The position numbers and the translations under genes were made by a program. From assembly GCA_963765495.1 (NCBI GenBank), contig CAVXWP010000009.1:809240-873239 (forward strand): a stretch of DNA of 64,000 nucleotides, in the 5' to 3' direction. Origin of the DNA: Blastocatellia bacterium (GTDB lineage: Bacteria; Acidobacteriota; Blastocatellia; UBA7656). Each line of letters opens with the position of its first letter. Within the stretch, counting starts at the first letter, position 1. Of the stretch, positions 1,067 through 61,000 are shown piece by piece. A model generated the notes under the pieces. It worked only from the letters and a program-made list of their open reading frames with translations, did not search any database and had not been told where the DNA came from.

Positions 1067-1438
1067 CTAAACTTCGTAAGTCGCCGATGTCGAAGGAGTT
1101 TCCCATACGCGCACCTTGTAAACCTTCACCCGGTCGTCGTTGATCTGTTCGGCTATCTTGTGAAGTATGAAACCGGCCAGATGCTCGGATGAGGGGTTCA
1201 TCTCGATGTCGAAGGGCTTAAGCTCGTTAAGATTCTGATGATCGAGAAAGCGCATGACCTCCCGCGCAGCCGCTTTCAACTCTCTGAAATCAACCAGCAT
1301 GCCTATATCGTCCAGCCGTTCACCGCGCACATAAACTTCGACCTTCCAGTTGTGGCCATGCAGGTTTTCGCATTTTCCGCGATACCCGCGCAAGGCATGA
1401 GCGGCGGAAAACTCTTCTTCGATCATCACCTCGTACAT
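1067..1438 (-). CDS. queD: 6-carboxy-5,6,7,8-tetrahydropterin synthase (QueD / 6-pyruvoyl-tetrahydropterin synthase family)
   Basis: 123 aa with the CENLHGHNW motif (Cx3HGH) and the EFSAAH N-terminus characteristic of QueD/PTPS. Confidence 0.9.
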   Translation of the reverse strand: MYEVMIEEEFSAAHALRGYRGKCENLHGHNWKVEVYVRGERLDDIGMLVDFRELKAAAREVMRFLDHQNLNELKPFDIEMNPSSEHLAGFILHKIAEQINDDRVKVYKVRVWETPSTSATYEV

Positions 1439-4222: not shown

Positions 4223-4420
4223 CAAAAATTGGTAACACTTTTGGCCACTCATCTGAAATGATCCGGCAGATACATTACTCCGTTTCCATATGTTTTGTAA
4301 TATATAAATCATTCAAATTTGGCAATTTATCTTACTTAAGTCTTCTTTTACAGATGTTTTCCGGATGTGGCAGTGGTTGTTGGTTATCCAAATATTTGGA
4401 ATTTAATTCAAATATTTGGA
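4223..4420. promoter_or_regulatory. Three copies of palindrome TCCAAA-(A/T)n-TTTGGA (4223-4236, 4387-4400, 4407-4420) in the divergent region upstream of the TonB-dependent receptor gene
   Basis: TCCAAATATTTGGA is a perfect 14-bp palindrome; related TTCCAAAATTTTGGAA recurs upstream of the paralogous receptor at 10697-10712. Confidence 0.45.
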
Positions 4421-4720
4421 TAAATTCAATAAAATTGATCTTCATTGAGGAACAAGAGAAAGCGAGCTAAATAGAGTTATAGCTAAGTTAAGCTCCCAAA
4501 CGGGTTTTCAGGTATAGGAATTGCCTGTATTGAACCGACTCAGGGGACATCCAGAGAGATTATGGGGCAATGCAACAAAGGTACTCACCGACTTTAGATA
4601 CGAGTGTATTTGGTCAAGCACAGGCTCCATTTTTATCAGTATTTCAAGGATAAGCTACTCCCCAAACTCTGTCGGTGAGCAAGACCAAACAATTCAACTA
4701 TTTATGAAGGAGGAGAATCC

Positions 4721-7834: not shown

Positions 7835-7869
7835 GAGAGTAGTCTTATTAAGTGAAATTCTTTTCACTT

Positions 7870-9185: not shown

Positions 9186-9304
9186 AACTTTAATTCTCCA
9201 GGTTCCGTCGTCCACAAAATATGATGAGTGATTGGTTGAACACATTCTATCAGAAAAGCTCTTGCGGTTCTATTTATGATTGAGAGAGAAAGCGGGTGGG
9301 CAAA

Positions 9305-9349
9305 GAATAAAAATGGTTCGAGTCGGCAAAAACTTCGCCGACTCGAACC
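9305..9349 (-). terminator. Rho-independent terminator for the 9387-10436 gene (13-bp stem GGTTCGAGTCGGC/GCCGACTCGAACC with T-run on minus strand)
   Basis: Perfect inverted repeat preceded on the plus strand by AAAAA. Confidence 0.7.
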
Positions 9350-9386
9350 TGTTACTGTCGAGGCCGCAGGCGCTGCTGTATTCAGA

Positions 9387-10676: not shown

Positions 10677-10712
10677 TCCAAAATTTTGAATGAAATTCCA
10701 AAATTTTGGAAA
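10677..10712. promoter_or_regulatory. Palindromes TCCAAAATTTTGAA / TTCCAAAATTTTGGAA upstream of the second (pseudogenised) TonB-dependent receptor
   Basis: 16-bp perfect palindrome; same half-site as the sites at 4223-4420. Confidence 0.45.
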
Positions 10713-23139: not shown

Positions 23140-24543
23140 CTCACCTGCTTTTAACCATCCGTAGCGAGAAGTCCCCTGCTCTTTAGGCGGGGGATGAATC
23201 GCGGCGGTACTAACTGAGATTTGGTACTGCTATGAACGTGTTTCGTGCTATAATGATGACGGCTCAAATCAGCACTTGCGATGCCAATCTGAGCCTCACC
23301 GATGCCGACTATAGGAGAGTCAACATGGCTGATGGAATCATAACACAAAGAGCCTACCGCTACAGAATCTATCCCTCTCACGCTCAAATCACACGACTTG
23401 AACAGACGCTTTCCTACTGTGCGGAGTTGTATAATGCGGGCCTTCAAGAAAGAAGAGACGCTTACCGGATAGCTCGAAAGTGTATCTCTTACAAAGAGCA
23501 GCAAAACCAGCTTCCAGAAATCAAAGCTGTTCGACCTGAGTGGAACACGGTGCATTCTCAGGTATTGCAGGATGTTCTCAAGCGACTTGATAAGGCTTTC
23601 GATGCGTTCTTTCGCAGAGTCAGAAGCAAGCAAGGCAAAGCCGGATTTCCGAGATTCCGCGCCCGCTCTCGCTATAATAGCTTCACCTATCCTCAGTCTG
23701 GATTTGCAATAGAGAATGGCAAGCTTAGACTTTCTAAAATCGGCCGCATCAAAATCAAACTCCATCGCCCGATTGAGGGTGCTATCAAAGGATTGACTAT
23801 CACGCGCAGTTCCACGGGCAAATGGTTTGCCTGCTTCACAGTAGAACAGGTAATCAATCCAGAGCCGCATAAGGGCAAGGCTGTAGGCGTGGATGTAGGT
23901 ATAAAGACCTACTGCACATTGTCTGACGGAACTGAGATTGATAACCCGAAGTTCTTTAGAGTGGAGGAAAAGAACCTTGCCAAAGCACAGCGCAAACTCT
24001 CTACCTTCAATAAAGGTTCTGATGAGTATCGGAAGCAGCGCAAGGTAGTAGCTCGCATTCATGAGCGAATCACAAATAAGCGAAAAGACTTCGCGCATCA
24101 ACTCTCTCATTACTTCGCTATTACTTATGCACTGATAATCTTTGAGAAGTTGAATATCAGAGGCATGGTGAAAAACCATTGCCTCGCCAAATCCATTCAG
24201 GATGCCAGTTGGAATCAGACTATTCAGTATACGACCTACAAGGCAGCATGGGCCGGGGGTATGTCGCTGAGAGTCAATCCAGCAGGCACAAGTAATACGA
24301 CTCACTGCTGCAAGGCGAAGGTTGATATTACGTTGGCAGATCGTGTAATCCATTGTCCTCAGTGTCATCGAACTATAGGCAGAGATGAAAATGCATCTCT
24401 GAATATTTTGAGTCTGGGATTACAGACTCTTGGCCTTAGCGCCATAGAAGCCGCTTCCTTTGGGTAGCGGAATAGTCACTCAACCGCAAATAGGGATAAA
24501 ATTGGCCTCGGAATGGAAACCGGAAGGCGGGTCCGGAACCTTT
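23140..24543 (+). mobile_element. IS200/IS605-family element of the single-ORF (IS1341-like, tnpB only) type; ends approximate
   Basis: Contains tnpB only, no tnpA; bounded by an upstream terminator and the start of the next gene; exact LE/RE not determined. Confidence 0.55.
23325..24467 (+). CDS. tnpB: TnpB (OrfB) RNA-guided endonuclease-like transposon protein, IS605 family
   Basis: N-terminus RAYRYRIYPSHAQITRLEQTLSYCAELYN (OrfB_IS605), RuvC-I GVDVGIKTYCTLSDG, C-terminal zinc ribbon CPQCHRTIGRDENASLNI; RBS AGGAGAG. Confidence 0.9.
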   Translation: MADGIITQRAYRYRIYPSHAQITRLEQTLSYCAELYNAGLQERRDAYRIARKCISYKEQQNQLPEIKAVRPEWNTVHSQVLQDVLKRLDKAFDAFFRRVRSKQGKAGFPRFRARSRYNSFTYPQSGFAIENGKLRLSKIGRIKIKLHRPIEGAIKGLTITRSSTGKWFACFTVEQVINPEPHKGKAVGVDVGIKTYCTLSDGTEIDNPKFFRVEEKNLAKAQRKLSTFNKGSDEYRKQRKVVARIHERITNKRKDFAHQLSHYFAITYALIIFEKLNIRGMVKNHCLAKSIQDASWNQTIQYTTYKAAWAGGMSLRVNPAGTSNTTHCCKAKVDITLADRVIHCPQCHRTIGRDENASLNILSLGLQTLGLSAIEAASFG

Positions 24544-25020
24544 ATGGCCTACATCGTAGACGGCAACAACGTAATGGGTCAAACGCCGGGCTGGCATCGC
24601 GACAAATCCGGGGCGCGCCGAGGGCTGCTTGAGCAACTGGCCGCTTTCGCGCATGTCAAAAAGGCTCGCGTAACGGCCGTATTTGACGGCGCTCCTGACG
24701 AGGGCGTGCCGGAGGGGTCTGCCTATCACGGCGTCAAAGTGCTTTACGCTAAGAGGGGATCGGATGCCGACACTCGAATCGAACAACTCGTAGAGTCGGC
24801 CCGTGATCGGCGCGGGCTGATCGTCGTCACATCGGATCGACGGCTTGCGCACGCGATTCGCTCGCTCGGCGCATCCGTCCTGCGGTCGGGAGAGTTCAGG
24901 AATTTGATCGAAGAGGTGATTGCCGGTCGCCCGCTCGCCGAAGACGGAGAGCAGTTCGATCTCGGAGATATGAATGAGTGGCTCAGATATTTCGGCGCTT
25001 CGCCCGAAGACGATGTGTGA
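24544..25020 (+). CDS. NYN/PIN-like domain protein, YacP (Rae1)-like
   Basis: MAYIVDGNNVMGQ N-terminus and about 158 aa length match YacP-like NYN proteins. Confidence 0.65.
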   Translation: MAYIVDGNNVMGQTPGWHRDKSGARRGLLEQLAAFAHVKKARVTAVFDGAPDEGVPEGSAYHGVKVLYAKRGSDADTRIEQLVESARDRRGLIVVTSDRRLAHAIRSLGASVLRSGEFRNLIEEVIAGRPLAEDGEQFDLGDMNEWLRYFGASPEDDV

Positions 25021-25023
25021 TGG

Positions 25024-25116
25024 GTGATATGTGATACGTGATACGTGATTCGTTGTCTTGATTGCCATCTCCGGTCACGCATCACGAATCACGTATCACT
25101 TACCCTGTATCACGAA
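25024..25116. repeat. Heptamer-repeat hairpin element: arms (GTGATAY)4 and TCACGCA-TCACGAA-TCACGTA-TCAC
   Basis: Inverted tandem heptamers starting at the stop codon of the NYN gene. Confidence 0.7.
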
Positions 25117-25129
25117 GGAGGTAATAGGC

Positions 25130-26791
25130 ATGGCTTACGAACGGCCTCGAGCTTACCGCGATGTAAGGGTAGGCGAATTGCTCACGCTGCTTGCGCGAGA
25201 CTACCCGCAGAACGAGGCGCTGATTTATCCCGACCGCGAGCTTAGATACGATTTCAGTCAGCTTGAATGGTTCGCCCGCCAGATAGCCAGAGGGCTGTTG
25301 AGCATCGGTGTAGAGCGGGGCGACCGCGTGGCCCTGTGGGCGCATAACATCCCGGAATGGGTCGTCTTGCAATTCGCCCTCGCAAAGATCGGAGCCATAC
25401 TCGTTACCGTAAATACCAGCCTCCGCGCTGCGGAAATCGAATACCTGCTCAGGCAATCGGAGACCAGCACGCTCATCACCGTGGCGGGCTTTCGCGATCT
25501 TGATTATGTAAAGACCATCTACGAGATCATCCCCGAATTGCGCGGGGCGAAAGAGGGCGCGCTCCATTCAATGAAGTTCCCCTATCTTCGCAACATAATT
25601 TATATCGGCGATGAGCATCCGGGTGGGATGCTCCGTTACGACTCTTTGCTCGACCGTTCGGGGCGGGTGAGCGATGATCAGCTAAACGCCCACTCGGATA
25701 TGCAGGACCTCGACGACGTGATAAACATGCAGTACACCTCGGGCACAACGGGCTTTCCAAAAGGGGTTATGCTGACGCATCGCAACATAGTAAACAACGG
25801 CTACTGGCTGGCCGAAGGGCTTGCGCTCACTTCAAGCGACAGGTTGTGCGTGCCCGTGCCTTTCTTTCATTGCTTCGGCTGTGTGATCGGAGTGCTGGGT
25901 GCTTACACTCACGCGGCTGCGATGATTCCGCTTGAATACTTCGACCCGTTGCGAGTGCTTCAATACGTGGAACGCGAAAGATGTACAGCCCTTTACGGGG
26001 TGCCGACCATGTTCATAGCCGAGCTTGAACAACTCGATTATCACTGTTTCGATATGTCGAGTTTGAGGACGGGCATAATGGCGGGCTCGCTGTGTCCCGA
26101 ATCGCTCATGCGAAAAGTGATGGAAAAGATGAACCTGACCGAGATGACCATCGCCTATGGATTGACCGAAGCCTCGCCCGGAATAACGCACACGCCGCGA
26201 GATGACAGCATCGAGTTGCGTACGCAGACCGTAGGCCGCGTGATGCCCGAAATGGAAGTCAAAATCATCGACCCGGCCACGGGCGAAGAATGCCTGCCCG
26301 GCAAATCCGGTGAGTTGTGCTGTCGCGGTTACAACGTGATGAAGGGGTATTACAACAACAAACAGGCCACAAGTGAGGCGATTGATGAAGAAGGATGGCT
26401 GCACACGGGCGATCAGGCCAGTATGGATGAGCGGGGGTATGTCAGGATCACCGGGCGTATAAAAGACCTGATAATTCGCGGCGGCGAAAACATCGCGCCA
26501 AAAGAGATTGAAGACCTGTTGCGCACGCATCCGAAGATCGCCGATGCCTATGTTTATGGTGTGCCCGATGAACGCTACGGCGAAGAGGTCGCCGTGGCTG
26601 TCCGCCTAAAGCCCGGCGAGACGGCAACCCCGGATGAAATCCGCGCATATTGCGAAGGCCGCATAGCCAAATTCAAATATCCGCGCCACATCCGTTTCGT
26701 CGAATCATTCCCCATGACGGCTTCTGGCAAGGTGCAGAAGTTCAAGCTGAGAGAAATGCATGCTCGGGGGCCGGGGGCCGGGGACCAGTAG
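25130..26791 (+). CDS. AMP-dependent synthetase/ligase (acyl-CoA synthetase family)
   Basis: [15 protein letters not shown]-binding motif, [13 protein letters not shown], and C-terminal lysine motif [10 protein letters not shown]; RBS GAAGGAGG. Confidence 0.9.
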
Positions 26792-26947
26792 GTGGGGGCC
26801 GGGAAGCATAAGATTACTTTTCGCTTGCTAACTCCAATAGCAAATCAGCAAGCGACATTATAAAGTACGCTTAGCCTTGATTGGTAAACCGGCCCCTGAT
26901 CCCCGGCCCCCGGCCCCTACCTTATGGCCCCTGACCCCCGGCCCCCA
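26766..26947. repeat. GGGGCC/GGCCCC-rich palindromic element: left arm GGGGGCCGGGGGCCGGGGA inside the 3' end of the synthetase ORF; right arms GGCCCCTGATCCCCGGCCCCCGGCCCC and GGCCCCTGACCCCCGGCCCCC; nested 8-bp hairpin CGCTTGCT/AGCAAGCG in the loop
   Basis: Read directly; same repeat family occurs in-frame at 47736-47902. Confidence 0.7.
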
Positions 26948-26949
26948 GT

Positions 26950-39033: not shown

Positions 39034-39042
39034 GAGATATTA

Positions 39043-39108
39043 GGTTTTGGATTTTGGATTGGCCGGACACAATCGGGCCCGGTTTTTCAAGTCCAAAATC
39101 CAAAACCT
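39043..39108 (+). terminator. Compound hairpin after the purC stop: AT-rich 19-bp outer stem (AGGTTTTGGATTTTGGA... / ...TCCAAAATCCAAAACCT) with inner GC hairpin and TTTTT
   Basis: Inverted repeat read directly; inner GGGCCCGG followed by TTTTTC. Confidence 0.45.
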
Positions 39109-39124
39109 AATGTCGGGAACGGTA

Positions 39125-41932: not shown

Positions 41933-42030
41933 AATTTCCTCCTGGCCTGACAGAGGGCCTTGGCCCTCTGTCAACTCTTCTCACGAAAATCCCGGCACGA
42001 ACGCCCCCCGGCACAATCTAGCTTGCGCTT

Positions 42031-42059
42031 CATTGCCCCTCATTGCCCTTCATTGCCCT
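42031..42059. repeat. Tandem 10-bp repeat CATTGCCC(C/T)T x3 immediately downstream of trxA
   Basis: Read directly. Confidence 0.8.
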
Positions 42060-42389
42060 TTACTGGATGTGTCTTTCGAGAACTTCCGAGAGCACATCCT
42101 TGCTGACTGCGCCGACTACGCGATCCTCTTCTTTGCCGCCCTTAAACAGTATCAGCGTAGGAATCCCTCGCACGCCGTAGCGCCCCGCCGTTTCATGATT
42201 TTCGTCCACGTTCAGCTTTACGACCTTCGCCTTGCCCTGATACTTCTCCGCAAGCGCTTCAACGGTCGGAGCTATCATTCGACACGGTCCGCACCATGTC
42301 GCCCAGAAATCCACAAGTACCGGCTGCTCCGATTGAAGCACATCCGTTTCAAAACTGTTGTCGCTCGTGTCATTAACGTAATTGCTCAT
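42060..42389 (-). CDS. trxA: Thioredoxin
   Basis: WCGPC active site, about 109 aa. Confidence 0.9.
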   Translation of the reverse strand: MSNYVNDTSDNSFETDVLQSEQPVLVDFWATWCGPCRMIAPTVEALAEKYQGKAKVVKLNVDENHETAGRYGVRGIPTLILFKGGKEEDRVVGAVSKDVLSEVLERHIQ

Positions 42390-46236: not shown

Positions 46237-46885
46237 GCTGCACTCACTTCTTTCCATTGACGACGCGACCGAATTGTATCGCTGCTTTCTCAAAGATACT
46301 CTTGCGCTGATGGAAAGCGTCCCCGAAACCGAAACCGTGATATCTTACACGCCCGCCGGGGCCGAACACCATTTTGAAGGAATAGCCTCAGGCAACCATC
46401 GCCTCCTGCTGCAACGCGGCGAGAGTTTTGGAGACAAGCTCTATCACGCGCTCGCGGATTTGCTGAGAGAAGGGTTCCGAAGCGCCGCCATTATGGACGC
46501 CGACAGCCCGACTTTGCCTCCCCGGTATCTGGCGCAGGCATTTGAAGAACTGGCGCGACCGGGCGACCGCGTAGTCCTCGGCCCCGCCCTGGACGGAGGC
46601 TATTACCTTATAGGGATCAAGCAACCACACAGACAACTCTTCGAGCGAATAACATGGTCGACCGAGATGGTTCTCGCCCAGACCATCGAGCGCGCAAGAG
46701 AGATAAACCTCGAAGTGTCGCTGCTTCCCGAGTGGTATGATGTAGACAACGTCACCGAATACGAGCGACTGATGGAAGAGATAAAAACCGCCGCAAACGA
46801 AAGGACCGACTTGAACGGGTTTGCGGCAAATACCCGGCGTTTCATCCTGTCGCGCCGGTCGCAATATCAGGCAGACGGGAAGTAA
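46178..46885 (+). CDS. DUF2064 family transferase (TIGR04282-like, rSAM/selenodomain-associated transferase 1 family)
   Basis: N-terminus ALAVAAKAPQPGTVKTRL is the hallmark of DUF2064; overlaps the CDF 3' end by about 59 nt. Confidence 0.6.
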   Translation: MRQALAVAAKAPQPGTVKTRLHSLLSIDDATELYRCFLKDTLALMESVPETETVISYTPAGAEHHFEGIASGNHRLLLQRGESFGDKLYHALADLLREGFRSAAIMDADSPTLPPRYLAQAFEELARPGDRVVLGPALDGGYYLIGIKQPHRQLFERITWSTEMVLAQTIERAREINLEVSLLPEWYDVDNVTEYERLMEEIKTAANERTDLNGFAANTRRFILSRRSQYQADGK

Positions 46886-48456
46886 TGACAAGTCATTCGA
46901 AGCTCTTGCCAGGCGGTGTCGAGCGAGAAATGCTGACCTTCATAATATTCAAGGTCTCGCTTGTCGCTCTCGGCATTTTGAGCCTTGCGCTTTATCACAT
47001 CAGCGCGCCTCTTTACCGCTATTCGCCGGGCAACGTAACCTACATCGCCACCTTTATCGGCCAATTCGCGTTTTACCTTCTGGCCTGTTACGCGGTTACT
47101 CGCTTTCGCGCAACAGACGCGGCCCGCAATTTATCATCGGTCACGATTTTCACGCTGATGATAGTGCTGATGTTTGCGGCGGCTTTTCGCGCAAGGCTTG
47201 TGACCGAGCCGCCCTTCCTGTCGAGCGATGTTTACCGCTATATCTGGGACGGTCGCGTGCAGGCATCGGGCATCAACCCTTACCGTTACATTCCGGCAGA
47301 AGAGGAACTGGCTCCTCTGCGAGACGACCTGATCTATGCCAACATAAATCGCAAGGATTTCGCGCATACGATCTATCCACCCGTAGCGCAGGCGATATTT
47401 TTGGCCTCATACCTTGTACGGCCATCGAGCGTGACGACATTCAAAGTAACGATGAGTTTGTTTGACGCGCTTGCGGCGCTGGCCATAATGCTTGCGCTTG
47501 CGCGGGCAAGGATGGACCCCGCGCTTGTCATCTTTTTCGCATGGCATCCACTGGTAATCTGGGAAGGCGCGCACAGCGGTCATATCGAATCGGCAAGCAT
47601 GGCGTTTCTGGCGCTCGCGCTTCTCTGTTGGACCTATGAAAAACGCGCTCTTACCGGCGTAGCCCTCGCGCTCGCAACCCTGGTCAAACTCTATCCGATC
47701 ATGCTGCTGCCGGTGTTTGCCGCGGCGAAATTGCCGCAGGGGCCAGCTTCGCAGGGGCCAGCTTCGCAGGAGCCAGGGGCCGGGGGCCAGCTTCGCAGGG
47801 GCCGGGGGCCGGGGGCCGGGGGGCTGGGGGCTGGGGATGAGAAGAAAGCTACAGGCAAGAAAATTGACCTGATAAACCTACTGGCCCCCGGCCCCCGGCC
47901 CCTGCTCCATCTGGCAGCTGCATTTATCCTCACGATCATAATCGCGTATCTGCCTTATCTGAGCGTAGGCGCGAAAGTGATAGGATACCTGCCGGGATAT
48001 TTGAAAGAAGAAGGATATATGCACGCCGGGAATCGCTATTTTCTGCTGAGCCTCGTGCGATGGTTTGTCCCTTTGCCGACTGCCGCATACTCTGTTTTTT
48101 CGGCCCTCGCTCTACTGGGGTTCGGCGTGTGGCAGCTATTGAAACCGAAACGCAACGTTACGGATGTCGCTCGCGGAGCCGCTCAGTTGATAGGGCTTTT
48201 CATGATACTCAGCAGCCCTCGCTATAGCTGGTATGTAGCGTGGATAATTCCATTTCTCTGCTTTGCGCCACGGGCGGCCTGGCTATATCTGACCGGCGCT
48301 TCGGTCTTGCTTTATCTGCTCTGGTTCACGACCGATTATCCCAATATCCCTTTATGGCTGGGCGCGGCGATTTATGTGCCGGCCCTCGCGCTGTTTATCA
48401 GGGATAGGGTCAAGATAAAAGTTGTGAAAGAGAAGGCAAGCGCGTCACAGGCTTGA
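46885..48456 (+). CDS. Polytopic membrane protein, DUF2029 / GT87-like glycosyltransferase family, with a low-complexity loop insertion encoded by a GGGGCC-type repeat
   Basis: Many TM helices; loop PQGPASQGPASQEPGAGGQLRRGRGPGAGGLGAGD...LLAPGPRP is encoded by repeat DNA at 47736-47902. Confidence 0.6.
   Translation: MTSHSKLLPGGVEREMLTFIIFKVSLVALGILSLALYHISAPLYRYSPGNVTYIATFIGQFAFYLLACYAVTRFRATDAARNLSSVTIFTLMIVLMFAAAFRARLVTEPPFLSSDVYRYIWDGRVQASGINPYRYIPAEEELAPLRDDLIYANINRKDFAHTIYPPVAQAIFLASYLVRPSSVTTFKVTMSLFDALAALAIMLALARARMDPALVIFFAWHPLVIWEGAHSGHIESASMAFLALALLCWTYEKRALTGVALALATLVKLYPIMLLPVFAAAKLPQGPASQGPASQEPGAGGQLRRGRGPGAGGLGAGDEKKATGKKIDLINLLAPGPRPLLHLAAAFILTIIIAYLPYLSVGAKVIGYLPGYLKEEGYMHAGNRYFLLSLVRWFVPLPTAAYSVFSALALLGFGVWQLLKPKRNVTDVARGAAQLIGLFMILSSPRYSWYVAWIIPFLCFAPRAAWLYLTGASVLLYLLWFTTDYPNIPLWLGAAIYVPALALFIRDRVKIKVVKEKASASQA
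47736..47902. repeat. GGGGCC/GGCCCC palindromic element (15-bp tandem CAGGGGCCAGCTTCG x3, then GGGGCCGGGGGCCGGGGGCC... / GGCCCCCGGCCCCCGGCCCC arms) embedded in-frame in the DUF2029 gene
   Basis: Read directly; same family as 26766-26947. Confidence 0.7.
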
Positions 48457-57622: not shown

Positions 57623-57904
57623 TCAAGCCAGATATTCGGCAAGCTCCCGCTCAAGTTCTTCCGGGCCGACCTGCTCACCCCGATTAAGCCGGTCCAGAGT
57701 GCGATCAATTACGGCCTTCGCTTCATCCTTGTGGTCCTCACTCAAGAACCCATCGAGGAAATGATCCCCCGCGAGGGCGTGGTTGATCTCCGATTCCTTG
57801 TTGTGCTCGTCCAACTCCGTGAAGTAGACAACCTTGTATTTGCGGTTGTAGCTGGCTTCACGATAAACCTCAAACATTATCTTTTCCGAATTTCGCATAC
57901 TCAA
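57623..57904 (-). CDS. Hypothetical small protein
   Basis: 93-aa ORF downstream of the activase operon. Confidence 0.4.
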   Translation of the reverse strand: MSMRNSEKIMFEVYREASYNRKYKVVYFTELDEHNKESEINHALAGDHFLDGFLSEDHKDEAKAVIDRTLDRLNRGEQVGPEELERELAEYLA

Positions 57905-57907
57905 AAC

Positions 57908-58002
57908 GTGACCAGTGACGCGTGATTCGTGAAAAGGGAATCAACTGATGACGATTCGGGTCCCTGAAAATCACGCATCACGCGTCACTGGTCACGAATC
58001 AC
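57908..58002. repeat. Heptamer-repeat hairpin element: arms GTGACCA-GTGACGC-GTGATTC-GTGA and TCACGCA-TCACGCG-TCACTGG-TCACGAA-TCAC
   Basis: Read directly; about 25-bp arms, about 38-nt loop. Confidence 0.7.
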
Positions 58003-58006
58003 TTTC

Positions 58007-61000
58007 CTAGTCTCCCGAAGCGCCTATCTGATACTGTGGCACATTGCCTGAAAGCACGGGCAGCGAAATAATTGAACCTCGCCGCGAACTGGCTTTCTCT
58101 TCTGCCTCGGCCTGCAATCGCAGAAGACGCTCGAATTCGGCAAGCTTCTCTTCCAGCGTCCTTACCTTGCCTTTGTTCTTGATCATGTCTTCACGATAGC
58201 GCTTGAGGAAATAACCTATCGTCTCGACTCTGATCTTGATAGAGCCGGTCGGTTTATTTTCGTCTATGTCCTTGAAGCAGAAGTAAGGCGTACCCGCATT
58301 CTGAACGGTCTCTTCGACCACGGTGTAAATCGGCGCGTCGTGGCCGCATTTGAACGACGAAAGCTCCAGCGCTACTAGATTCGGATGGCGCGCCGTGTAT
58401 TTCGCGGCCCAGATCTTGCGGCTGGTGTTTTCCGAATAGGAATTCTTCCACGCATCCTGAATGTCCATCGGATGCTTGATTATTCCCGCCCGCACTTCGT
58501 CGCCAAACAACCGCCACAGTATGTCGTCATCTATCGGCAGCGAGTCCATAGTAAAGACCGGGTATCCAAGCTTCTGGAACTCTTCAAGTATCTCGTGATT
58601 GATGCCCGGATCGTTATGATAAGGACGACCAAGCATCACGACTCCAAGCCCGTCTTCGGCTTCGAGTTTTTCGAGCACCTCGCGGCCCGCGCCGCGCAGC
58701 GTCACATTATAGAGAGTATCGAGCGCCTTGAATCCTTCTTCGATGGCCCGATGATTCTCCTCCTGCGTGAGACCTAGCAGGTCTTTGAATACTTCATACA
58801 TCTGCTTTTCAAGCAGTGGCGGCTCATCGAGATTCAGAATCGGGTCAAGGTATCTGGTGCCCAATTGCGCAAACAGATCGCCCTCTTTGATGAATGCCGC
58901 CTTGACCGCTTCGGGCGTTGCCGTGACGGTAGGGCATGCGCGGCTGCCCTGCGTGTTGACAAGATCGGTGGGCAGAGCGTCTATCATCGGGAAGAAGATA
59001 AAATCGAGCGGCTTCTTTTTGTGATGAACCTGGAGCAGGTTGTGAACGTGCGGTATGCCCACCTTTGACGGGAAGCACGGATCGATGGCCCCGCGTTTCG
59101 CGCCTTCTTTGTAAAGCTGCTCGGTTGTGTAATCGGAATAAACCAGATTCTGCGGTTTGACTCCGAGGCTTTCAAAGTAAGCCGAAACAAACGGATTGAT
59201 CGAATACTGATTAAGAACGCGCGGAATGCCTATGCGCAGGGACTCGCGTTTCTTGAGCAATTCGTTGCGCTGTTTCTGCGACTTTGTGAAAGCATATTTA
59301 TGAGCCGGGTCCGCCACCTTCTGCGGATTGTAGCTGCGCCATGCGGCTTTGGCCGCGATCTCGACAAAGTTCGGATTTGCGGACTTCATCGAATCGAGCC
59401 CCTTCTTGATGACCCGCATATCGGCCACGTCTTCGACCAGCCCCTTCTCGCAAGAGTTGCCTACGATAAGGCGCTGCACGCCCGGCAGGATCGGAATCTT
59501 CGATTTGCGCGGCGGTTCGGTGCTCTCTTTATCCGACACCTTCACGTCAATAAAGGTGCGCAGACATTTGTTCTTGCAGAAGTAACACCTGGTGTCCTCA
59601 TTGCGATGCGTGACATAGGTGATATCCTCGACGCTCTTCAATCCGATAAAGCTTGTCCGGCGACCGTTTTCCCAGAGTCTTACCGCTTCGATTGCAGCCC
59701 CAATCGCGCCCGATTCGCCGCAGTGCTCGTGGACTATGATTCGCGGCTGGATATCTTTGCCCTTAAAGCGCGACTCGATAAAATCAACCTGAGACTTGAC
59801 CGCCGCGAGGTTGTGCTGAGTGCCGCCCTGCAAGACGAAGTTTGTACCGAGCGCGGCGATGTTTGGTATCTGCGAAACATAGAGCCAGATGTTTTTCGGA
59901 AGCACGGCGGCAAGACCCGCCATGATCTCTTCGGGCTTCCAGCCCTGTCGCTGAAAGTCAACAATGTCGGATTGCATAAAGACCGCGCATCCGTAACCGA
60001 ACGTGGGCATCGCCTGCGCGCTGAAGGCTATGTCGGCGTACTGCTCTACCTGCATGCCAAAACCTTCGGCCGTCGATTGCAGGAAGTAGCCGTTTCCAGC
60101 CGAGCATTGCGTGTTCAATTTGAAGTCTTTGACCTGACGATTCTTCAGGATTATCAGCTTGATGTCCTGTCCGCCCACGTCAACGATCACATCCACATCT
60201 TTGTAAAACTGCAAAGCGGATTCGGTATGCGCGACCGTCTCGACTAAAGCGACATCGGCGTTGAGCGTGTCTCTCAAAATGTCTTTTGCGTATCCGGTAG
60301 TGCCTACGCCGAGTACGTTGAGAGTTGCGCCCTGATCGGTTACCTGCTTTTCGAGTTTGCCGAAGACTTCCATGGTGTCTTCTATCGGGTTGCCTTTTGA
60401 CAGTTGATAAGTCTTCACAAGAATCTTGCGGTCCTTATCGAGCAGCACGGCTTTCGTAGAAGTCGAGCCGCCGTCCAGACCTATGAAACCTTCAACGACC
60501 TGCCCCGGTTCAAAAGTGGCGGGCGTGAACTTCTTGCGCTTGTATCTCTCCTTGAATTCCAGCAGATCCTTTTCGTCTTCCGACAGTCCCTTTCCTCCGG
60601 CCTTCTTCTTCTCTTCGATGCGACCGTAGGTGATGTAATACTCAAGATCGGCAGTGCCGCGATAAACGCCTATACTATCGTCTTCGGACTTGCCGAATTC
60701 GACAGCGCCGAGTGCCGCGAAGTACTGCGCGTTTTCCGGCACTTTTATCAGGTCTTTCGGGTCAACCCCTTCGGGCAGCGGATAGTTGCGCTCTTCCCAC
60801 ACCTTCGGGATATTGGACTTCCAGCCTTCGACCATGCCCCGGATGTATGTATTGGGACCGCCAAGCAGCAAAACGTGCGGGCGCAGGGTGTTGCCTCGCG
60901 TAAGCACGGCGAGGTTCTGGCCTATGATCGCTTCAAACAGCGAGGCCATAAGCTCAGAAGGCGGCACGCCCATTTTCTGAAGCGAGTTGATGTCGGTTTC

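Follow-up and report, generated by a model that had tools for sequence, protein, structure and literature searches.

The sequence under study is a 64-kb stretch of acidobacterial DNA out of a contig of 910,649 bp, called the window in the following; homologues of the proteins encoded beside its loci bear the name Blastocatellia (Acidobacteriota). Three of its intergenic loci, which were read directly base by base, share a common plan consisting of a left arm of GTGAnnn units, an unrelated spacer of 21-40 nt, and a right arm of TCACnnn units, most of which read TCACGNA (Table 1). Neighboring genes were set by Pfam scans, which covered part of the ORFs of the window, and by synteny in relatives. 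Locus 1 is situated between convergent genes and its right arm stops 2 nt short of the TAG (1067-1069, minus strand) of a 6-pyruvoyl-tetrahydropterin synthase gene. Locus 2 occupies the gap between a NYN/YacP-like gene, whose TGA stop (25018-25020) falls inside the first unit of the locus, and an acyl-CoA synthetase gene starting at 25130; the last TCAC lies 3 nt upstream of a GGAGG sequence (25117-25121). Locus 3 takes up the 117 nt that separate, on the minus strand, a CoA-enzyme activase gene from a conserved ORF of 88 amino acids. Its right arm stops 4 nt from the activase TAG (58007-58009, minus strand) and its GTGA arm, which is the C-rich arm of the minus strand, ends 9 nt before the ATG of the 88-aa ORF (57888-57890). 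As the first-pass annotation of this DNA had stated, all three loci are therefore found at gene 3' ends, locus 2 containing a TGA and loci 1 and 3 abutting TAGs. Since loci 2 and 3 also reach the ribosome-binding site or start of the next gene, both fill their entire intercistronic gaps, and at the three loci together five of six arms are within 0-17 nt of a gene boundary.

Table 1. Arms of the three GTGA/TCAC loci and hairpins of other unit families in the window.
Feature	Position	Sequence	Units or context
Locus 1, G-rich (GTGA) arm	983-996	TGCGTGATGCGTGA	two clean units (GCGTGAT GCGTGA)
Locus 1, C-rich arm	1037-1064	(TCACGCA)3 TCACGAA	
Locus 2, G-rich arm	25017-25053	GTGATGG GTGATAT GTGATAC GTGATAC GTGATTC	
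Locus 2, C-rich arm	25075-25113	TCACGCA TCACGAA TCACGTA TCACTTA (decayed unit) TCAC	
Locus 3, G-rich arm	57907-57932	CGTGACCAGTGACGCGTGATTCGTGA	GTGACCA GTGACGC GTGATTC GTGA; C-rich arm on minus strand
Locus 3, C-rich arm	57971-58002	TCACGCATCACGCGTCACTGGTCACGAATCAC	TCACGCA TCACGCG TCACTGG TCACGAA TCAC
GGGGCCG hairpin	26765-26948	(GGGGCCG)n, spacer, (CGGCCCC)n	between convergent acyl-CoA synthetase and cytochrome c554-like genes
TTTTGGA hairpin	39038-39110	(TTTTGGA)2-3, spacer, (TCCAAAA)2-3	fills the gap from SAICAR synthetase stop to CvpA start
GGGGCCG-family hairpin with 15-mer repeats	47735-47905	(CGCAGGGGCCAGCTT)x4.7	in frame within a GT87-like membrane-protein ORF (46885-48456)

Decayed units trail the clean ones of the locus 1 left arm to about position 1008, so that the 3-5 tandem heptamers per arm reported at first do not apply to this arm. 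The spacer measures 40 nt in locus 1, 21-26 nt in locus 2, and 38 nt in locus 3, where the arms are complementary at 96% over 26 nt; stems of the three loci comprise 14-26 bp. Tandem Repeats Finder (TRF) assigns a period of 7 to 1037-1062, 25024-25053, 25075-25099, and 57970-57988, as well as a higher-order period of 14 nt to the left arm of locus 2. Within the TCAC family of the window the core is constant and variation is confined to unit positions 5-7 (about 22 units). Spacers and flanks, on the other hand, are unrelated among the three copies, and unit number and order differ too. Scanning the window with the pattern TCACNNNTCACNNNTCAC yields 12 matches, all of them within the three loci, when shuffled sequences lead one to expect 0.01, and the pattern TCACGNNTCACG is matched 9 times vs. 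0.12 expected. The complete arrangement (GTGAnnn)n, 21-40 nt, (TCACnnn)n exists at three places only in 64 kb, where chance would give about 0.01. With 12 matches for 0.01 expected, the original proposal of dispersed heptamer hairpins that did not arise by chance is confirmed. Predicted RNA folds of loci 1, 2, and 3 have energies of -35.1, -44.1, and -55.5 kcal/mol and z-scores of -3.7, -3.9, and -8.9, respectively (range -3.7 to -8.9 on either strand), and folding with DNA parameters gives similar z-scores for the three loci.

No T-run follows the stems of the three loci on either strand, and none of the three appears in the list of terminator-like sites of the window. An intrinsic terminator would have a short G+C-rich stem and a loop of 3-8 nt ahead of its T-run, whereas the loops of these loci measure 21-40 nt. 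Canonical hairpin-plus-T-run terminators are encountered elsewhere in the window, at 7868, 14156, 23100, 28733, and 55280. Lack of a T-run, loops of 21-40 nt, and the ordinary terminators elsewhere uphold the earlier view that these are not simple terminators. Comparison with Rfam gave no match at or above gathering score anywhere in the window. Also among the terminator-like sites of the window is a palindrome, TCCAAAATTTTGGA ... TCAAAATTTTGGA, at 10677-10710 on the minus strand, which has the TTTTGGA/TCCAAAA motif in common with the 39038-39110 hairpin.

A TnpB-only element of the IS200/IS605 type extends over 23155-24491. Its tnpB ORF (23232-24467) has the Pfam domains OrfB_IS605, Cas12f1-like_TNB, and HTH_OrfB_IS605. 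The element is inserted between the terminator of a FecR gene and the NYN gene, with the junctions ...gcttttaacc on one side and ...agtcactcaacc gcaaatagg on the other, and is not present in any relative examined. For some TnpB enzymes TCAC serves as the target motif, and tnpB is 550 nt away from locus 2. A link between the two was considered and rejected, because in alignments with relatives the element proves to be an insertion of its own, with TTAACC as its boundary. Between it and locus 2 lies the NYN gene, and locus 2, being outside the element, is neither an IS200/IS605 end nor a TnpB-associated RNA.

The GTGA/TCAC family is not alone. At least three unit families (GTGA/TCAC, GGGGCCG, and TTTTGGA) share one architecture within 64 kb, the window containing three copies of the TCAC family and three of other families. 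The hairpin at 39038-39110 folds with -44 kcal/mol (z -7.7), and the predicted stem encloses and pairs the cvpA ATG. It ends 2 nt upstream of this ATG, and a Shine-Dalgarno sequence is not visible. In the GT87-like ORF, the Pfam match stops at residue 282, just upstream of the hairpin at 47735-47905; this is the sign of a split gene or else an insertion of 171 nt that is tolerated in a protein loop. Other short tandem repeats are located at 42023-42060, (TTGCCCTTCA)x3.8, and at 4389-4429, a 20-mer x2.2 in an A+T-rich gap.

Common to these families is the period. Arrays of at least three copies with period 7 number 8 in the window, 20 in 78 kb of relatives, and 347 in 796 kb of other loci, the corresponding numbers being 0-3 and 1-3 for periods 5, 6, 8, and 9 in the window and in the relatives, and 8-38 for other periods in the other loci. 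Within-array variation is not column-concentrated in general (0.767 vs. 0.759 for the null in 172 arrays), in a test contaminated by ragged array ends. A conserved core with a variable spacer as a general law was therefore discarded, as there was no overall signal in this test.

At orthologous sites in relatives the hairpins turn over. In the gap between the NYN and acyl-CoA synthetase genes, the window has GTGATAC-type units with GTATCAC, the relative L123 has (GTGATGA)2 with TCATCAC-type units, and L121 and L124 have (GATGAAT)3 with (TTCATCG)3-4. In L126, which shares about 90% nucleotide identity with L123, this gap is reduced to 16 nt and the hairpin is absent, as it mostly is in remoter relatives. 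In the CoA-activase gap, L207 (88% protein identity) contains (GTGACAA)/(TTGTCAC) where the window has mixed GTGA units, a different dispersed palindrome is found in L208, and L210 has a 13-nt gap devoid of a hairpin. On the 3' side of the synthetase gene, the window carries GGGGCCG, L126 GGGGTCA, L121 AAAAGTR, and L124 a plain hairpin. These comparisons indicate that position and architecture endure while both arms change jointly, and that entire blocks can be lost. The TCAC family itself is also encoded in the relatives L207, L059, and L121.

Two further repeats were observed in the relatives. One is a true dispersed palindromic element, CACCGCAGAGACACAGAGAAC ... GTTCTCTGTGTCTCTGCGGTG, with conserved arms and a partly conserved loop, present in L123 (6612-6738 and 11690-11830), L208 (6560-6635), and L121 (about 9300-9370). 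In L123 it forms a 127-nt block that is cleanly missing at the equivalent site of L126, and in L208 it stands in place of the TCAC hairpin at the activase site. The other is the motif gcgcgaagcgcatcat(c/g)ggcc, which is repeated in intergenic gaps of the relatives, often next to heptamer arrays (L126 14790-14840, 4850-4880, and 1180-1215; L123 11760-11800).

The arms of heptamer hairpins are arranged with a strong polarity. Whichever strand is read, the G-rich array comes first, and this near-absolute rule is common to different unit families, types of gene context, phyla, and viral contigs. A generic inverted-repeat finder was applied to the window and 205 loci, considering stems of at least 14 nt and classing a hairpin as periodic if its arms were at least 70% identical at lag 7. 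In this set, the G-rich arm is the 5' arm in 65 heptamer-armed hairpins and the C-rich arm in 3, and for the TCAC family the ratio is 26:0, whereas non-periodic inverted repeats are balanced (271:251). In loci not chosen by pattern the ratio is 21:2. Among 552 viral-contig loci (5.0 Mb), the G-rich arm comes first in 125:13 hairpins of period 7 and 18:2 of period 8, other periods being balanced and non-periodic repeats amounting to 871:768. The rule applies to co-directional (37:0), convergent (9:1), and divergent (11:1) gaps alike. Stop codons had been considered as its cause, since three or more GTGAnnn units place TGA in three frames, but non-TCAC families are G-first as well, at 18:2 with stops balanced between the arms and at 7:1 with stops in the second arm. 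With longest-ORF calls that are crude except in the window and six annotated loci, the G strand also has its 5' end nearer to an ORF, at a median distance of 7.5 vs. 92 nt for paired arrays of the wider set. Of 69 TCAC-family arrays without a detected partner, 49 have the nearer gene on the 5' side of their GTGA strand. Where the arms have period 8 (e.g., GGCGACGC), the G-rich arm likewise comes first, in 7:2 at bacterial loci (L126 1104-1179; L026 5864-5921; L044 3533-3666) and in the ratio given above at viral-contig loci. One such hairpin, in L126, lies within the loop of a GGATGAA heptamer hairpin.

The explanation that we favor, although tentatively and at slightly less than even confidence, is that the loci are intergenic heptanucleotide repeats in their convergent-pair form which grow at the DNA level by slippage and arm copying. 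Their unit consists of a GTGA/TCAC core, usually TCACG, plus two or three free positions. Loci would be made and maintained as DNA, replication slippage adding and removing units and intrastrand template switching copying one arm from the other, so that the arms stay alike. A hairpin may thereby long outlast its unit sequence, which drifts, and neither a TCACG-specific protein nor a transposase would be required. Where the loci are transcribed, stems of 14-26 bp would extend from a stop codon to the ribosome-binding site that follows, and TGA would be present in all three frames of the GTGA arm. A barrier to exonucleases, a site for RNase III, or a stop of translation would be secondary effects. 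Anatomy, membership in the class, turnover at orthologous sites, preference for period 7, and polarity are direct observations, whereas slippage, copying between arms, and the effects on RNA are inferences.

Several observations fit this explanation. Identical units are found adjacent to each other in 37.7%, at distance 2 in 31.3%, and at distance 3 in 26.8%, and two-unit higher-order patterns occur in arrays, both of which fit slippage. Variable triplets are common to both arms in 73.5% within the same locus, compared to 54.8 +/- 3.5% between different loci, and the order of triplets is mirrored between the arms of locus 3 and of L078. Sharing of triplets within loci and the mirrored order in locus 3 fit copying from arm to arm. 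The explanation also draws on the preference for period 7, the several unit families with one architecture, the turnover at orthologous sites, and the like anatomy of Xanthomonas and Geobacter repeats. A gradient of unit decay along arrays was considered and dropped, since the asymmetry was only weak (0.49 vs. 0.35 for the first flanking unit). However, neither the strong polarity (65:3 and 125:13) nor the sharp preference for 7 over 6 or 8 would be predicted from slippage with arm copying. The kept TCAC core of the window, with its variation at positions 5-7, resembles constraint, and the presence of one family at three unlinked loci of the window also fits poorly. Some pairs in other genomes (L052, L009, and L113) share just the TCAC core between their arms, which is unexpected from copying. 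Finally, the persistence of a hairpin at orthologous sites could reflect selection.

Such selection is the essence of the first alternative, which we consider unlikely, namely that the loci encode a REP-like RNA stem-loop, placed between cistrons or at 3' ends, that would stall 3' exonucleases, serve as a cleavage site for RNase III, or bring transcription or translation to a stop, heptamer periodicity being just the way in which stems grow. The strong predicted folds and the extension of the arms from stop codon to next ribosome-binding site agree with it, and so does the hairpin kept at two orthologous sites with both arms changing together. RNAalifold recovered 10 pairs from four orthologous hairpins and 4 of these 10 had changed on both sides, in what is a poor alignment due to unequal lengths. 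Other kinds of hairpins fill the same gaps in relatives, and a hand count of annotated Blastocatellia loci together with the window gives 10 co-directional, 4 convergent, and 0 divergent contexts. In the larger sample, however, and with crude ORF calls, heptamer hairpins have 36 co-directional, 13 convergent, and 10 divergent contexts vs. a baseline of 367, 119, and 124, thus matching it, divergent gaps included, and the association with gene 3' ends is weak. If pairing in RNA were under selection, G.U mismatches should exceed A.C mismatches on the sense strand, but the numbers, 30 vs. 33, reveal no asymmetry. The close relatives L126 and L210 do without the hairpin, the wider set of heptamer hairpins has a median loop of about 40 nt, and T-runs are lacking at the three loci and Rfam matches in the window, where canonical terminators are used elsewhere. 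The G-rich-5' rule in convergent gaps (9:1) is left unexplained as well. Together, the signs of slippage and copying, the lack of a G.U excess, and the baseline-like contexts favor a DNA-level and largely self-maintaining origin over selection for RNA pairing.

The polarity rule might instead be a mark left by a specialized, strand-polar transaction on bacterial DNA that writes heptamer arrays into intergenic regions, a conjecture that we regard as rather doubtful. Candidates for such a transaction would be the synthesis of repeats on 3' ends at breaks, followed by head-to-head joining, or, alternatively, stalling on G-rich templates that triggers arm copying. As an account of the loci themselves, the addition of repeats or snap-back synthesis on the 3' ends of breaks with subsequent rejoining would yield head-to-head G-strand arrays resembling fused telomeres; this we judge quite unlikely. 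It would account for a polarity limited to arms of period 7 or 8 and seen in every type of gap, whatever the location of stop codons, for arm pairs that share a core and not the order of triplets, and for spacer DNA of a block that is unlike the local sequence of the relative without the block. In contrast, the mirrored triplets of locus 3 and L078 require arm copying, a single template is hard to reconcile with several unit families in one genome, the most parsimonious history of the NYN site is a loss in L126 and not a gain in L123, and an enzyme was not identified. If true, a strand-polar DNA process would explain the long-noted excess of heptameric repeats, and the present loci would gain interest should the polarity rule turn out to mark such a dedicated process.

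Arrays of binding sites, with one heptad per subunit of a protein that recognizes double- or single-stranded nucleic acid, are in our opinion an improbable alternative. The model is the omega repressor, whose heptad operators have the sequence WATCACW; most units of the window read NATCACG, and the kept core, the variable positions 5-7, the presence of one family at three unlinked loci, and the pairs whose arms share the core alone would fit binding sites. In 185,579 species genomes scanned for (TCACGNN)3TCAC, at least 119 stretches were found, compared to about 4 estimated by chance for 19 specified bases in 596 billion bases. The matches listed include cultured isolates and belong to Chloroflexota, Verrucomicrobiota, Nitrospirota, Bacteroidota, Desulfobacterota, Acidobacteriota, Gemmatimonadota, Planctomycetota, and Proteobacteria, and TCACG arrays adjoin other heptamer arrays in loci among them. 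Many TCACG arrays are situated at extreme contig ends (L012, L017, L055, L063, L071, L228, and L275). Such positions would be expected if the arrays are multi-copy and interrupt short-read assemblies, in which case counts from draft genomes would be too low.

A scan of a viral-contig collection gave at least 120 TCACG arrays, and permuted cores served as controls, with 69 arrays for CATCG, 102 for ACTCG, and at least 120 for TCCAG. With the TCACG core, period 8 gave 32 and period 6, which is compatible with coding, gave 117. Permuted cores are about as common as TCACG, which suggests that TCACG is not privileged and that what matters is the array of heptamers; these control scans, two of which are lower bounds, argue against TCACG as a special core. 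All-vs-all clustering of 702 ORFs from the 119 TCACG loci among the matches listed did not reveal a recurrent neighboring gene family, the largest cluster spanning 9 of the 119 loci, so that no gene is associated with the arrays there. At least three unrelated unit families within 64 kb, with many more in relatives, different units at orthologous sites, and the missing column concentration in 172 arrays with ragged ends also speak against binding arrays. In favor of a binding partner, a preprint on Nostoc describes that the deletion of heptamer repeats changes reporter output, a partner protein being speculated upon and neither a partner nor a mechanism identified (10.1101/2022.06.06.494920).

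Weakest is a non-autonomous mobile element of the REPIN or MITE type, spread by a transposase acting in trans, which we consider very improbable: the copies are palindromes scattered outside genes, close relatives differ in having or lacking whole blocks, relatives carry the true dispersed palindrome CACCGCAGAGACACAGAGAAC..., and a TnpB gene is near locus 2, but the three copies have no common spacer or internal sequence, ends, or target-site duplication and vary in unit number and order, the TnpB element is a separate one (...TTAACC) that ends before the NYN gene and is missing in relatives, and a recurrent transposase was not found near the arrays at the 119 loci among the matches listed. 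Several unit families, drifted orthologous units, about equally common permuted cores, and the lack of a recurrent gene thus indicate neither a TCACG-recognizing system nor a REP- or MITE-like element. The initial suggestion of a protein-recognized TCACG repeat is therefore probably wrong, and so is its REP/BIME-like variant, as neither loops nor termini have a sequence common to the three copies.

Compared to known systems, the loci resemble REP/BIME and REPIN elements, which also form hairpins, are dispersed outside genes, and frequently lie at gene 3' ends in operons, and they resemble REPINs also in consisting of two inverted halves that flank a spacer. REPs, however, are fixed sequences of 20-40 nt that share a conserved tetranucleotide at the 5' end and have a cognate RAYT transposase. 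The three copies of the window lack a fixed palindrome with conserved ends; instead, their arms are periodic and the unit differs by site and species. With omega operators they share units of 7 bp, an ATCAC core, and the occurrence of direct and inverted orientations. The omega heptads of pSM19035 are contiguous, belong to three plasmid promoters, and are bound by the product of a linked ribbon-helix-helix regulator gene, whereas the present arrays are chromosomal, split by 21-40 nt, located between unrelated metabolic genes with no recurrent neighbor at the 119 loci examined, and found alongside unit families of other sequence. An excess of heptameric repeats in the intergenic DNA of bacteria has been on record since 2007, and we know of no mechanism or established function for them to date.

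Among described heptamers, Geobacter metallireducens possesses multicopy paired sites of four or five tandem heptanucleotides (GGACCGG; MTYCTGA), annotated as unexplained regulatory sequences (Aklujkar et al., 2009; PMC2700814). These families have different units and were read as binding sites of regulators or as RNA elements, without an analysis of polarity or turnover (PMC2700814). The TAACTGA repeats of Beggiatoaceae and the STRR heptamers of cyanobacteria form abundant intergenic arrays in distant phyla, which abut start codons, often in place of a visible ribosome-binding site, and contain stop codons (MacGregor, 2015; PMC4679880). These arrays are nearly all direct, with one indirect case among 170 sets (PMC4679880), whereas the loci of the window are inverted pairs.

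The closest counterparts are the heptameric repeats GGGAATC of Xanthomonas and GGGGA(C/T)T of Nostoc (Rehm et al., 2015; PMC4692102). Xanthomonas genomes contain 70-75 convergent inverted pairs each, the G strand being 28 nt away from the 5' neighboring ORF vs. 160 nt on the other side, and related species occupy the same intergenic sites with variation in length and sequence (PMC4692102). In the window, TRF and pattern scans detect tandem 7-nt units with at least two or three copies per array, the arrays of all three loci are convergent with the G-rich strand first, and they lie between genes, the G strand having its 5' terminus near an ORF. The loci are thus a new family, in a new phylum (Acidobacteria), of the known class of intergenic heptanucleotide repeats. 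As in Xanthomonas and Nostoc, a conserved core is combined with variable positions and the arrays form convergent pairs. Unlike there, the host is an acidobacterium, several unrelated families coexist, and the GTGAnnn units, having no G-tracts, are not capable of forming G-quadruplexes, a property proposed for the Xanthomonas and Nostoc members that stands outside the anatomical definition of the class. G-quadruplexes are the rationale proposed for the GGGAATC repeats (PMC4692102), and with a unit of this kind in the class this main published rationale does not cover the whole class and fails as a general explanation. For genome annotation, such stems should not be labeled terminators, REPs, or regulator sites by default. 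The present loci broaden the class by the Acidobacteria and by a unit incapable of G-quadruplexes, and the set of loci compared here provides two testable regularities, namely that hairpins persist while both of their arms change together and that the G-rich arm is the 5' arm.
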